DNA of 64,000 nt, from the NCBI GenBank assembly GCA_964106915.2, contig OZ066919.1, one strand, 5' to 3'. A program made the translations under genes and the position numbers. Under the pieces are notes generated by a model, which ran no database searches, had not been told where the DNA came from, and saw only the letters and a program-made list of their open reading frames with translations. The stretch is from Podarcis gaigeae (Eukaryota). Shown one piece after another: positions 28,242-62,437 of the stretch. Numbering within the stretch: position 1 is the stretch's first letter; every line of letters begins with the position of its first letter.

Positions 28242-31154
28242 CAATTGCAGAATGCTGCTTGATGTCATGCCTTGATGTGATATTTAAGGAAATATTTAAG
28301 GAAAGCACTTGTCCTATTCCTGGTAGATTTGATGCTGACCTTCTGATAAATTTGGTTGAGCTCTGAAACTTGTACACAGAGTTGTACCTTCATGCATAAT
28401 CCCTTTTCTTTGTGCTATATGGAACATATGTTTTGTAAAGCTCCCTCCACCTACCCAGTTTTGCACATTTTCCTGTGATGATGTAATTTTCTTAGTGCAA
28501 TGTTTTTGTCCTTACATCTGTGGAATTCTCCAGTATAGCCATTTTGGCTTTGACTGTCCCAGTAACTCATATTTTGCTTTTTGCTGCTGATAGAACTTAG
28601 GCATCATCAGTTTCTGTTGTTCCTGTGATTAAATGCCTGACTAGTCATAAGAGTGATATAAACGTTATAAAAGTTTTATGCTTTCTCTGACCTTAATCTA
28701 TTGCTGCTGAAATACTTGTATACTCATTCAATGTTCCCTTGTAGAACAGCAAATATGGGATTTCTCTGGGAAGTTTTAGCCACAGTCAGTTGTTAGTTCT
28801 GGATAACATTCTGGCAGCTAATGTCCTCCAAAGCAGGAAGGGAAGGGTAGTCCTGTAATTCACACAGAAAACTCAGAGTATAACCTGAAGGGGTTAAATT
28901 CTAAAAGCCAGCCAGGGAACAGATACCCTGTTATTTGCTTAACAAGGTTTTTTGTGTGTGCATATTTCTTTCACAGAGTGTTCTGAGTTCATTTCAAATA
29001 ATTCTTTCAGCTGCTTCCTGGACTTCCTGTCATGCAAGTGGATAAAACAATATGACTTGCTAGGTGGGGGAAGAAACCTCAAATAAATTACATAGTAAAG
29101 CTATATATGCTATACTTTGGGCTCATGTCCTGGTCCAGTGTTGTGCTGATTCCAGCATTACTTCTGTAGACTTGAGAAGGTAGAAGACAGGTGGATGCCA
29201 TAGAATTCTAGGCTAAGTAGCAGCTGAACATCTTGCAGGAGTTAATACTGTAGTTAGGTCTGTCAGCAAAACCAGATATGTAAAGATTATGACTTAATCT
29301 AACCATAATGGTTGTAAAAAGAAATAGCATAGTATGTTTTTAAATTAGACATTTTCTTTGGAAAGAAAAAGTGGAGATATAGGTAAGTGCCTTGTGCACA
29401 TGTGAAGATTCTTCTAGACAAAGGATTTTTTTTCTAAAGTTGCTTTCTTTTCTTCCCAGCAATAGAACAAGCTTACTTTTCTGGAGTAAATTCAGCCTCT
29501 GGTTCTATTCTCAGGTTGTACATAGGCAGTAGATCTGCCCTTAGCAATCCAGGATGCTTAAAAGTACACAAATCTCCTTCTATTCAGATATTATCAGATA
29601 GGAGCTTTTTGGGTTAACGATACAAGACCACAAGAGGCAAATCAGATTTGACCTTACATGAACTATCGGTCTGTACTGTACGAACAGCAATATTACTGTA
29701 TGCGGTTTTGGTTTGGGAGGCGCTCACACACCAACAGCAACTTATATCTGTTCACATAATGGTTTATTCTGCCCTTTGTCCTCTGTACATCTGTGACTTT
29801 TCCAAGACAATTGGCAAAGTGTTGTTAAGAACAGATGTTAAGAAATTGTTCATCTGTTATCTGTAAACCCCACTAGTCAGTGCTTTCAGGAGTGTTTCAT
29901 CTAGGGGTTTGAACTATTTGCTGGGAACAGGGATACACATAATTTAAAACAATGAGCCTTGTTTGATTGATGAATAGTTAGCCTTTGATTACTAGTGAGC
30001 TTTAAAAATTGGATATGGCAAGGAGTCAGGCACATGGTCATTTATACAACATTCCTGAAAACAAATGCTATGTTTGTGGAAGGAGAGAACGATAAATAAG
30101 TGGTAGAGCTGTTGGGAAAAGAAGAACTCTACCTAGTTACTATTAGCCATAGAAAGACTTTAATATGTTTCTCCCAGTCATTGAAATCATGGTTATCCCT
30201 ACAATCTGAAAACAAAGCACAATGCTTAACGGATATGTAAAATTTTATTTTTGGCATACATCTTCATGGATGTTAAATGTGGATGGCAGCAGGTTACCAC
30301 AATTCACAGTATCTTTTAAAATAGGGTATTTCTTTCAACTTCTTTCCTGTTGAATATTTATTTGACTGTAATTTAAGTATGTGATAATTTTCACAGAACA
30401 TTTTCCTAGTCCTAATATCCCATTTCAGGTCATAGCTCTATTGGGCCTGGGGATGCAAATGCTCGCATGATCGATTGCCAGTCATTCACATCCAGCTTCA
30501 AGCAAAAGTTGAATTAAACATTTTTATCTTGTTCCTTAAGCATCTTAGCTAGTGCTCATTTATGGTTCTTTCCTATCCTGATCTCTTTAGTGTGTGTATG
30601 TTCTTTTCATTTGACTTTAAAATATCTGGCTGTTGATTTCATGTCCAGTTGCATAGCTCCTTTATTTTGGGAACAGCAGAAAACAAAAACAGAAACCCTT
30701 CTTTGTTCTCTACTTGCTATGCTGGAAGCTTCAATACCCACTTTCAGTACTGTCAGACTCAGAGTGGCTGACCTAATATTCTCTGCCTGCCAGTAGCCTC
30801 AAGGGACTGTTCTATCAGCCCAGGAATGCCAGGGCAGTGGGATCTTCCTGCTGGCCTAGATGCCTTGTGCTTTTTTGCCAGAGAGACAGTGGCTGAGTGC
30901 CACAGGGATTTCCCTTTTACTTGGAACTGCAAAGTAGGAAGCCGCAGCAAGTCATAATAGAACTGAAGCTCAACAGATAAGCAGCAGCTACTCTTACGGC
31001 AATGAAGACAGTTCAGATGAGGCACAGCCAATGGACTACTGGTGTACTTTTCTACTAGTAGAAACCTTGATCCTCACTGGATAAAACTAGTACCATTTCC
31101 TTAAAGAAATTCTAGTTACTTTGTCACTTACAAATTCAGTTCTCCTTCTTCCCC

Positions 31155-31310: not shown

Positions 31311-31612
31311 ACAAACATTGTATAAAGCCAGAAGCCAGCTAATAATTGACTACAGAGTATTATTGAGATCGTAGTTGTTATTATGCACAATCATTTCAAA
31401 GTTCTATCTGCCTGCACTTCACATATCTAAAAACTAAATTGCTAAACACCATACAAAAAATAAAACCATCATTTTTGTGGCAAAGTGTATCGTATTCAGG
31501 AAAGAGGAAAACAATAAAAGATGCAATTAATTTACTCCATGTTAAGGCTTCCCAGTGGGGCCCATTTACAGAATCTCTTAATACACACCATTTACAAACT
31601 TGAAATGGTTCT

Positions 31613-32432
31613 TGTCAGAGCTGCCCTAGGTCCCAGCTCACAAAGGACCGCCAGTTCTTGCTATATACATAAGTCTTTATTGAAGTTCAGTTTCGATTTC
31701 AAAGCTGCGGCGCGCAGCTCTACGTCTTGAACTCTAGACCGCTGAAGCTCCGTCTGAATCTCCTCCCCCCAGGCACCAGTTTAAGACTCTAGCCCTGCTC
31801 CACCTCTTCCTCTGCTCTTTCCTCCTCTGGGTCCGCCTGTCCGCTGGGGTCTTGCCCTTTCTGGACTCTTCTGACGCTGAGTCCCCTGAGTCTTCCCCCT
31901 GCCTCCGGCGGGCTTTAGGACCTGGTTCCCAATCCGGGTTTTCTGCTGTGCCGCGCGCCTGTACATTTGAACTTGGCGCCCGCGCCCAGCCGGCAACCTT
32001 CCTCCTGACCATTACACTGCTCCTGTCACTGCTTCCCCCTTCGGGGGGGCTAGCTGGGCCTGACCTCCCCTCCGTTCCCTCACTCTCCAACAGAGGCGTG
32101 GTCAGCCCTGACTCATCTTCTCTCCCTGCTGGAGGAGACGCTGGCCCTGATGCATGGGACTCTTCCCCCCCACTACGCTCCGGTGGGGGAGCTGGCCCTG
32201 ATCTCTCGCTGCTGCTTTGGGAGTCCCCGCTGGCCCCTTGCTTCTGGTGCGGCCCCCTGGGACCCCCCTTGCCCTGGCCATTGGCGCCCCCTTCTGGGAA
32301 TCTTCTGATTCGCTGGAGAAGCTCATGGAATCTCTCGGGCCACTGTCATACTCCCCTACGCTGCCCTCCGATTCTTCCCCTTCGCTCTCCATTTCCTCTC
32401 TCCCCTGTGCCTCTGCTCCTGAGCCCCTGACA
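31613..32432 (-). mobile_element. Solo LTR of an LTR retroelement (820 bp, young)
   Basis: Termini TGTCAG...CTGACA; perfect 5-bp TSD GTTCT (31608-12 and 32433-37); minus-strand AATAAA at 31681-31676; abruptly GC- and CpG-rich. Confidence 0.9.
31734..32392 (-). pseudogene. Putative LTR-encoded ORF with one frameshift; 219 aa if repaired; acidic Ser/Gly/Pro-rich with Arg-rich C-terminus
   Basis: Frame A (ATG 32392, MESEGEESEG...) overlaps frame B (open 32345 to TAG 31734); adding one base in the C-run at 32253-57 fuses them. Confidence 0.4.
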
Positions 32433-32526
32433 GTTCTGAACACACAATCTGGGTAAAGGCTATGTTTTCCTCTCACCTTTAATGTTAATGTGAACATAAT
32501 TGTAGGCCAACTTCCCAGAGCAAATA

Positions 32527-32757
32527 CAGTGGTACCTCAGGTTAAGAACTTAATTCGTTCTAGAGGTCTGTTCTTAACCTGAAACTGTTCTTAACCTGAG
32601 GTGCCACTTTAGCTAATGGGGCCTCCCCCTGCCGCTGTGTGATTTCTGTTCTCACCCTGAAGCAAAGTTCTTAACCCGAGGTACTATTTCTGGGTTAGTG
32701 GCGTCTGTAACCTGAAGCGTCTGTAACCAGAAGCATCTGTAACCCAAGGTACCACTG
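32527..32757 (-). mobile_element. Tc1/mariner MITE, family A
   Basis: TIRs cagtggtacct...aggtaccactg, TA flanks; reverse of the 13673 copy. Confidence 0.93.
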
Positions 32758-34853
32758 TAACAACTTAATGTGGAGTAGTTACTCAGGAAAAATGGCTATA
32801 TTCTGCATACTGCAACTGTCCCAGTCTTGGTCAGAGCTCTGGCAGCTATTATTTTTAAAGGAAAATGGCACATTCAGGACATACACACATTTAACATATT
32901 TAATCTGTGAGTACAGATGAAGCTGATGGTGATTATTCTAGGTGTGTGAATCCAGAAATATAGGCTATAATGTACAGGAGCTTGGAGTTGTTGTTGGAGC
33001 CAGGTTGACATATTCTGTAGGTGAGGCACTAGGGCATTGGGGGTAAAAATTAATTTTTGCAGATTTCTTCAGTGAGGAATTCAAATCCACTATTGCTTTT
33101 GTGATTAGACAGCATTTAGCTTGGTAAATCTACGTTTGATTGAAAAGCACATAAACTGCTCTCAGAAAACCAATTTTTTAAAAAAATTATCTTCTGAAAA
33201 TGCCAAGTAATGCTATTAAAAATTTAGTTTCTTTGTATAAAGCATATCCTACTAGGCATACAACATCACCTTGTAATCATAAAACATTAGAAAGTAATGA
33301 CATCAGTTAATAAGAAATTTAAACAACAAGTTTCATGAAGTCTTGCTTTGATTCATTCTTGGACATCAGCCACTAACTTGCTTCTTGGGTACTGGGGACA
33401 TGGTTTGGATATTATGCCACAAAAAATACAACACAAGCATATGCTATTGAGTTTTGTGTGTACAGGCAACTTTTAAATTTAGTAGTGGAAGAAAACTAAA
33501 CATTTTCCCACTTTGCATTTCCGCAGCTGAATTAACTATGTGTTCCTTAGCATTCTTGCTATGGCTAACATTCTTTGCACATTAACATGGGAGTAAGCCT
33601 CATTTGTCACAGTGTGACTTGCCACTTTAGAGTCTGTATAGAGTTGTGTGTCCATGTGTCCCAAGAACCAAAGTGAATTAACCTATTCAAACACTGTACC
33701 ATTAGTTTCTGAGCCCTATTTCACCTGCTACCCCACTTAAAAAAATAAATAGTTCCTTTTGCCTCAGATGTACAACCAGAACTGCATGAAAATATCTTTG
33801 TACAGTGCTCATGCATAGTATACTGTATATTTAATATATCATTTTAACATTATTGATTTAGGTTATGGAGAGTCATCTTGTCTCCCTCACACACACAACA
33901 TTTAGTGATTTAGCATCTGTTGAGCATAAGAAATAATTAATTACAGACAGGCAATATTTGTTGCCTTATAGCTTCCACGATGGGCAGAATATTAAGTGCA
34001 GAAATGTATTTGCTATTTTGTATGTGGGGCTTCTTGTCACAAAATATCTTGGGTATTTTGACAAATATGGCAACTTCAAAAACTGTTTTCTTACTAAAAT
34101 CTAATGGCATTACAAAATTACTGATTTACTCTCTGAAAACAATAACAACCCTCAACATTTTAAGCAGCAGTGTTGTCAGCTTGCCAATTAAGGTCTAGGA
34201 AGAGTCTTCTTTGAGAGGCACTGCCAAACAAATACAGATTGTATGAGTTGGTTTGTCAAGAAGTACATACTTTAATTAGTATGGGATATATTTTGATTTT
34301 TCAAGGCCTTTCCTTTTCTGACCTATTCTATTCTTAAGATTATAATTAGAAAATGGTGTTTTATACTGGTCATCCATCCATTATGTAAGTCATTGGAATT
34401 TGGATTGCAAAACTATACATAGCTGAATTTGATTACCAAATGGTTATGGGTGTTTGATAGTATTAACTGTATTACAATGTGTATTTATGATTTCACATAC
34501 TTTCACTTCTCATTCCAGTAGTGACCTTTGGGCCAAATTTTGATATAACAACACAGATCCTTGGTTTGAGAATGAACTCTGCTTTATGCATTAAGGAGGT
34601 AGGAAGAGAAGCAGGGAACTGAACGCCCAAGCTTTGCACCTGTTTCTGTTCATAACAACCTTTGTACCAGCCTTTGCTATAGTATATAGAATATTTGGGG
34701 CTCACTGCTAGTCTTCTTTTGTTTGCATAGAATGATTATCAAATATGTGCTTTTTTGCTAGCTGCTAATTATGTGGTAATGTTCCCAAAGACAGATTTTC
34801 CCAGCTGTAACGGAGCTTGGGGATAGGTGGATCATGGGTGGATCATAGTTTAC

Positions 34854-35290: not shown

Positions 35291-35453
35291 CCTGAGGTAC
35301 CACTTTAGCTAATGGGGCCTCCTGCTGCCGCCGTGTGATTTCTGTTCTCATCCTGAGGTAAAGTTCTTAACCCAAGGTACTACTTCCAGGTTAGTGGAGT
35401 CTGTAACCCGAAGTGTTTGTAACCCGAGGTGTTTGTAACCCAAGGTACCACTG
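35291..35453 (-). mobile_element. Tc1/mariner MITE, family A, one end missing
   Basis: Matches roughly 32595-32757; ends ggtaccactg+TA. Confidence 0.9.
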
Positions 35454-62190: not shown

Positions 62191-62437
62191 CAGTGGTACC
62201 TCAGGTTAAGTATTTAATTCATTCCGGAGGTCTGTACTTAACCTGAAACTGTTCTTAACCTGAAGCACCACTTTCTTAACCTGAAGCACAGCTCCTGCTG
62301 CTGCCGCGCCGCCGGAGCACGATTTCTGTTCTTATCCTGAAGCAAAGTTCTTAACCTGAAGCACTATTTCTGGGTTAGCAGAGTCTGTAACCTGAAGGGT
62401 ATGTAACCTGAAGCGTATGTAACCTGAGGTACCACTG
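62191..62437 (-). mobile_element. Tc1/mariner MITE, family A
   Basis: TA+cagtggtacctcaggtta ... taacctgaggtaccactg+TA. Confidence 0.93.

Follow-up and report, generated by a model that had tools for sequence, protein, structure and literature searches.

A coding frame in the LTR of a lizard chromovirus that very probably forms the C-terminal tail of Pol

The solo LTR and its parent element

The window, a stretch of 64,000 nucleotides of Podarcis gaigeae DNA (assembly GCA_964106915.2, contig OZ066919.1), holds an 820-bp LTR on its minus strand at 31613–32432. The initial annotation had called it a solo LTR, and this is borne out by its TG..CA ends (TGTCA..TGACA) and by the 5-bp target duplication GTTCT found at both sides. 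The features of the locus are as follows.

31613..32432, minus strand: solo LTR of a Ty3/Gypsy chromovirus (Tf1/sushi type), assigned from its ends, target duplication, family matches and whole elements
31608..31612, plus strand: left target-site duplication GTTCT; a 5-bp duplication is present in 23/30 fetched copies
32433..32437, plus strand: right target-site duplication GTTCT, matching the left one
32253..32431, minus strand: first, acidic part of the putative Pol-tail frame (frame A), ending at the frameshift in the window copy
31734..32252, minus strand: remainder of the putative Pol-tail frame (frame B), to the TAG at 31736–31734
32253..32268, minus strand: homopolymer runs, site of the frameshift of the window copy, which is nested among open-frame copies in the tree
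32390..32392, minus strand: ATG named in the initial annotation, read as an internal, non-conserved Met of the tail (ACG in 7/30 3'-junction copies; Met in 2/10 database proteins)
31773..31862, minus strand: basic C-terminal motif RKGK...RWSRARVLNWC, which the alignments place among the most conserved parts of the tail
31780..31784, minus strand: TATA-like TTAAA of presumed role, followed in both subfamilies by the self-primer site 29 nt downstream
31745..31755, minus strand: 11-nt self-primer site, to which the PBS in whole elements is complementary, and putative RNA 5' end (U3/R border)
31676..31681, minus strand: AATAAA polyadenylation signal, about 53 nt past the stop of the frame
31738..32430, plus strand: antisense stop-free frame without ATG, read as a shadow of the sense frame, with which it has its third codon positions in common

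In the window copy, frame A is open from LTR base 2 and frame B from 32345 to the TAG at 31734. Both frames, the ATG at 32392, the TAG and the AATAAA lie where they had been placed initially; the plus-strand ORF, by contrast, had been given as 192 codons and actually measures 230 codons from stop to stop (31738–32430), with no ATG. In a tree of natural LTRs (n = 49; two truncated and two redundant loci were omitted, as were junction LTRs shorter than 790 bp or without a found end), the window copy is placed among open-frame copies, and its frameshift in the runs near 32253–32268 is therefore either private to that copy or an assembly error. The window copy itself is a frameshifted solo LTR that likely makes nothing.

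Beside the LTR, at 32520–32760, lies a short repeat with internal units of 16–17 nt (TGTAACC...), which also occurs at 35402–35446 and 62232–62427. At about 30990–31045 (plus strand) a short stretch, YGNEDSSDEAQPMDYW, precedes a GT and resembles a host exon; the LTR may thus sit in antisense orientation within a host intron.

Whole elements of the family carry gag, then PR, RT, RH, IN and a Tf2-type SH3 domain; no env frame was found in them. Their closest solved protein is Ty3 Gag-Pol (E 1.8e-128), with 433 bits against at most 95 for retroviral chains, and in the copies that are unbroken there pol lies in the -1 frame relative to gag. The integrase is followed by a degenerate chromodomain (Pfam Chromo E 0.0018, below the curated cut-off) that is folded in the structure model (pLDDT 85–89); the Foldseek rows listed for it show chromodomain structures, the best with E 7e-3 and none reaching 1e-3. 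At the Y, W and Y positions of the CDYL2 chromodomain, which we take to be its methyl-lysine aromatic cage, the lizard element has N, R and T; judged by these residues, the chromodomain has lost its cage.

The PBS in whole elements is not of the tRNA type, tRNA-Met included. In 13/14 5' LTRs (3/3, 9/9 and 1/1 by subfamily) it is complementary to 11–12 nt of the element's own LTR; in the remaining one the PBS is mutated and the complement is absent. Where subfamilies differ, the two sides have changed in a matched way, and only 7/5000 random draws reach a complement of 11 nt. Tf1 is described as priming from the first 11 bases of its own RNA (excerpts of PMC7175516), and the Tf1/sushi group as self-priming likewise in yeast and vertebrates (excerpts of PMC6317226). 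Because of its self-complementary PBS, the element is filed with the Tf1/sushi chromoviruses and the start of its RNA is placed at about window 31755. The parent is an env-less Ty3/Gypsy chromovirus of the self-priming Tf1/sushi kind, and not a retrovirus like those with which the initial annotation compared it. None of the named V-clade sequences surfaced among the homologue search matches. Inside the integrase of one element (L032:4208–6205, minus strand) lies a 666-codon frame followed by a long GC-rich tandem repeat; by its look, we take this frame to be a DNA-transposon transposase.

The U3 frame as the end of pol

A genome search with the subfamily of the window copy (subfamily 1) gave 2555 candidates, 40 of which were scored; full-length matches are 96–98 % identical. 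Among the 30 best copies fetched, which include the window copy, 17 have an unbroken frame of at least 230 codons that begins at LTR base 2 and takes in the basic motif, and in 13 this frame is exactly 232 codons long (219 from the ATG). The fusion of frames A and B into 219 aa, which the initial annotation had obtained by supplying a base, thus exists in natural copies. In the younger subfamily 2, whose LTR is 760 bp long (1889 candidates, 40 scored; 5'–3' LTR divergence 0–0.66 % in 5 elements), a frame of 207 codons is kept in 27/30 copies, and two further variants keep it in 4/4 LTRs. Including subfamily 2, three other subfamilies therefore retain the frame.

Openness as such is weak evidence, because the sense strand is T-poor (103 T per 820 bases) and T-poor sequence is stop-poor. 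The initial annotation had cautioned in the same sense about GC-rich DNA, and rightly so: a stop-free run of 203 codons appears on the sense strand in 2.3 % of 2000 dinucleotide shuffles, and on either strand in 5.75 %, which makes chance alone a weak test. The antisense frame shrinks to 174 codons in subfamily 2.

The substitution pattern is more telling. Natural copies were aligned as DNA, blind to frame, and 78 pairs (13 by 6 open copies) were compared between subfamilies. In the frame, dN/dS is 0.36 (0.33–0.42; bootstrap on one pair 0.25–0.56); the other sense frames give 1.24 and 1.03. The pairs are non-independent, and the method ignores transition bias. The antisense frame gives 0.43, its third positions being common to the sense frame. 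Mismatches by codon position amount to 17/18/31 %, and dS is about 0.5, similar to that of most pol domains. Ten pairs formed by five copies from four variants range from 0.28 to 0.53, the +2 frame of the closer pairs also reaching 0.5–0.8. In one pair the value is 0.31 for the part of the tail that precedes the LTR, 0.16 for the chromodomain and 0.05–0.11 for the pol core. Moreover, the three distinct indel events within the frame (3, 9 and 63 nt) are all multiples of three, and indels of 1–2 nt occur past the stop. Both signs of coding function for which a search had been proposed at the outset, a dN/dS below 1 between subfamilies and indels in multiples of three, are thus present. Going by these comparisons, the U3 frame is under purifying selection, and the antisense frame is read as its shadow; U3 as promoter DNA can itself constrain sequence.

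In whole elements the pol frame continues without a shift across the polypurine tract and on into the U3 of the 3' LTR. It is open from integrase to the U3 stop in 3/30 subfamily-1 junction copies and in 3/5 subfamily-2 elements; the majority of older copies have breaks, frequently in G runs. Of 7 subfamily-2 3' LTRs examined, 5 have pol upstream, and in 4/5 of these the pol motifs keep the phase of U3. The chromodomain motif is in phase in 17/27 copies where it was found, or in 11/21 insertions once 7 segmental duplicates are collapsed to one. Of 150 genome matches, 2 fall inside a frame of 1591 codons. In Podarcis muralis, a UniRef model of 1498 aa (cluster of 23) runs from the protease through to the same C-terminus, which is also reached by P0003 and, from the chromodomain on, by an unnamed protein of 54 % identity. 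Four P. muralis UniRef entries (P0003, P0004, P0005 and P0017) are automatic models in which integrase is fused to the same tail; their name, 'Gypsy retrotransposon integrase-like protein 1', is a generic label without note of the LTR origin of the tail.

The U3 frame is thus very probably the in-frame C-terminal tail of Pol, the LTR-encoded part making up its last 207–232 residues, behind the chromodomain. The initial annotation had favoured an accessory protein of the Nef, Sag or Rev type, a reading that gives way to a Pol/integrase C-terminus continuous with pol; its side suggestion of an ORF entering from the internal region proved the better one. Full-length elements, whose recovery it had advised, have a Ty3/Gypsy pol and a frame that begins upstream of the 3' LTR. 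A separate overlapping frame had been suggested by the first whole element, in which pol ends at the LTR border, and was rejected when other copies indicated that this copy is broken there.

Proposed role of the tail and rival readings

The tail is rich in Ser, Gly and Glu, acidic first and basic last, and it is predicted to be disordered: the structure model folds the chromodomain alone and leaves 350/428 residues at pLDDT <50, which with a 13-row alignment is weak evidence of disorder. Short motifs stay fixed in the alignments while the rest of the tail drifts, and SLSSESEDSQK, SW.SGPASP, RKV, PGPKARR, SASEESR and RWS.A..L.WC are kept at 50 % protein identity. Neither the U3 frame nor the antisense frame has a match in Pfam. 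A search of 1.84 billion representatives returned 7 matches, all from the lizard family or a close chromodomain, and in the homologue searches (4, 5 and 6 matches, the named ones all Podarcis) the tail was not found outside lacertids.

Full-length RNA would start in R of the 5' LTR and carry U3 at its 3' end only. Gag-Pol would be made by a -1 frameshift, and a ribosome shifted from gag to pol would pass through integrase and chromodomain and then through about 150 acidic residues before entering U3, so that translation of the tail is probably confined to the 3' LTR copy on full-length element RNA. The protease would then free an integrase bearing the roughly 150 acidic pre-LTR residues and the 207–232 residues encoded by U3. 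The conserved Ser/acidic motifs may be phosphorylated, and the basic motifs may act as signals for import or for binding to chromatin.

By analogy with the C-terminus of Ty1 integrase, its phosphorylation by CK2 and the targeting domain of Ty5, the tail may be a nuclear-import or chromatin-tether module of the integrase, an assignment that taken alone we hold tentatively, at somewhat less than even chances. The explanation as a whole, a selected Pol tail translated from the 3' LTR and serving as an import or tether module, we consider likely. A large disordered C-terminus of Ty1 integrase is described in excerpts of PMC8487063, and the enzyme figures as a CK2 substrate in those of PMC9673352; the Ty5 targeting domain is covered in parts of PMC7175516, and short integrase targeting motifs in parts of PMC10050235 and PMC7175516. 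However, Ty1 and Ty5 are Ty1/Copia elements, their tails are internal to pol and not LTR-encoded, and there is no sequence relation to the lizard tail.

A supposed accessory gene thereby becomes a candidate targeting domain, open to testing, in a vertebrate retrotransposon that was recently active. In addition, many solo LTRs of the family hold selected coding sequence that is taken for host genes in automatic annotation. Should the tail serve no specific purpose, it would amount to a structural footnote for a single lacertid transposon family.

Such a tail, translated without a specific job, would have arisen when pol lost its stop, selection then removing stops and frameshifts, which avoids decay or misfolding, and keeping promoter sequence. 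Low complexity, a dN/dS well above that of the pol core, large in-frame length changes and a T-poor, hence stop-poor, sequence are all in keeping with it. Moreover, three LTRs with a broken tail (L013, L017 and L022) group as one clade (100/95) and occupy three sites whose target duplications differ, which, on the evidence of the tree, shows that the broken tail did not stop copying and that copying can proceed without the tail in cis. A possible side reading is that this clade is a non-autonomous or tail-less sub-lineage. We nevertheless consider a jobless tail unlikely, since the amino-acid motifs stay at a dS of about 0.5 and at 50 % protein identity.

Alternatively, the protease might cut the tail off as a separate small protein, an RNA chaperone or a chromatin tether. 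The p12 protein of MLV is the comparison for a cleaved small chromatin-tether protein. The long acidic linker past the chromodomain, predicted to be disordered, and the basic end would suit such a product, which differs from the selected Pol tail favoured here in processing alone; it seems to us a rather poor bet.

It is quite improbable that the frame is translated, also or mainly, as an accessory protein of its own from a subgenomic or spliced RNA, with its start at the LTR ATG or at a Met just upstream. The ATG is kept in 30/30 closest copies and in other subfamilies of the same genome, homologues spanning the border have an in-frame Met two codons before the 3' LTR, and in one pair dN/dS is 0.26–0.47 after the ATG against 0.92 before it (13 codons). 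Among junction copies, however, the ATG is kept in 21/30 and replaced by ACG in 7/30, and only 2/10 database proteins spanning the site have a Met there, several of those lacking it having another Met nearby. The start at 32392 chosen in the initial annotation is not conserved, and with a frame continuous with pol, separate initiation at the LTR ATG is unlikely on sequence grounds.

The likely start of the RNA (about window 31755) also speaks against a separate protein, as it lies at the 3' end of the frame, seven codons before its stop. A solo LTR should therefore not express the frame from its own promoter. The initial annotation had solo LTRs scattering copies of the ORF: a selected frame is indeed present in many of them, but expression from their own promoter is not expected. 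Four raw RNA runs, chosen by species label, gave reads mostly 85–95 % alike to the element. Their depth on the LTR far exceeds that on the internal region, they run into unrelated flanks and they occur in both directions; we read them as host transcripts crossing solo LTRs, which says nothing on translation. Among the splice joints listed for the four runs, none leads into the 3' LTR; internal depth in these runs is <10 and reads are mostly 90–95 % alike. Loose ends resembling a 5' tag, presumably that of Smart-seq3, gather some 10 nt to the upstream side of the self-primer site (9, 10 and 28 reads); these tagged ends adjoin a G run, so that strand invasion is possible, and one further group in mid-frame looks like one molecule. 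They fit a start near the 3' end of the frame without fixing it.

That the frame is a never-translated by-product of GC-rich, T-poor sequence, or that the antisense frame is the real one, is hardly credible and is largely refuted by the dN/dS comparison: both strands are open, the shuffles reach 203 codons and the antisense dN/dS is low, but the third-position excess is frame-specific, indels are in frame, continuity with pol is seen in two species, and the antisense frame lacks an ATG, has its wobble positions in common with the sense frame and falls to 174 codons in subfamily 2.

Known systems and genomic distribution

To our knowledge, the named V-clade elements end pol before the LTR, whereas the lizard Pol has about 350–380 residues past its chromodomain, more than half of them LTR-encoded. 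Otherwise the element resembles the V clade of Tf1/sushi elements (Sushi-ichi, Amn-san, Amn-ichi) in domain order, Tf2-type SH3, chromodomain and 11-nt self-priming, as these are described in excerpts of PMC7175516 and PMC6317226, and its LTR ends are close to the Sushi motif TGTYANR..CNTNACA given in part of PMC3601003.

The nearest parallel for coding sequence in an LTR comes from plants. CRM elements encode a CR motif in the 3' LTR, and the partner of this motif is given as unidentified in the sections of PMC3059260 used here. As in CRM group A, the polyprotein of the lizard family extends into the 3' LTR. However, CRM has a tRNA-Met PBS where the lizard element has a self-complementary one; the CR motif replaces the chromodomain in CRM, whereas the lizard element keeps a cage-less chromodomain upstream of its tail; CRM is centromeric and the lizard copies are mostly dispersed; and the lizard tail fills what appears to be all of U3. 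We infer an origin of the tail independent of CRM. If the tail directs integration, it would be an animal parallel to the plant CR motif.

HIV Nef, MMTV Sag and Rev, Rex and Tat come from separate retroviral genes, each with a start and an mRNA of its own. The lizard tail shares with them coding that overlaps U3 and an Arg-rich stretch, the resemblance to Rev, Rex and Tat being compositional alone, but its frame continues that of pol, in a retrotransposon that lacks env. No such tail is described for a vertebrate chromovirus in the titles and abstract starts of the literature searched; Repbase, Dfam and GyDB, outside that search, may record the long pol of the family.

The distribution of the family in the genome is uneven; small scaffolds (2/150, 3/40 and 1/40 rows) are omitted from the counts. 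A contig of 29.5 Mb (C32), perhaps the W chromosome, holds 26/138 insertions where 2.7 are expected, and 23/39 of the copies with internal sequence. Within 1 Mb of chromosome ends lie 12/112 insertions, against 2.9 expected, and 9/16 of the copies with internal sequence; solo LTRs are mostly dispersed, 100/112 being more than 1 Mb from an end. The stronger excess of whole elements near ends fits retention as well as targeting. It is conceivable, if improbable, that a vertebrate chromovirus has independently repeated the CRM-like invention, losing the cage and acquiring an LTR-borne module that steers it to chromosome-end and W-type heterochromatin, possibly as a separately released chromatin-tether protein; all of U3 would then serve as promoter and as coding sequence at once. 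Clustering at one end, as for centromeres, was considered, but both ends are used on several chromosomes.

Some further observations concern individual copies. On contig C32 one insertion has been amplified many times with identical flanks, at about 24.6–27.1 Mb (loci L100–L124 and others). The subfamily-2 elements L095–L099 have near-identical LTR pairs, yet 5/5 carry a stop, frameshift or deletion in gag/pol, some of which may be assembly errors. A subfamily-2 solo LTR with its own 5-bp duplication (L034:5080–5838) is nested in the pol of a subfamily-1 element. Finally, at L063, L125 and L127, copies of different subfamilies occupy the identical 5-letter site CATAC, and for two of them another repeat provides near-identical flanks; a target preference is possible.
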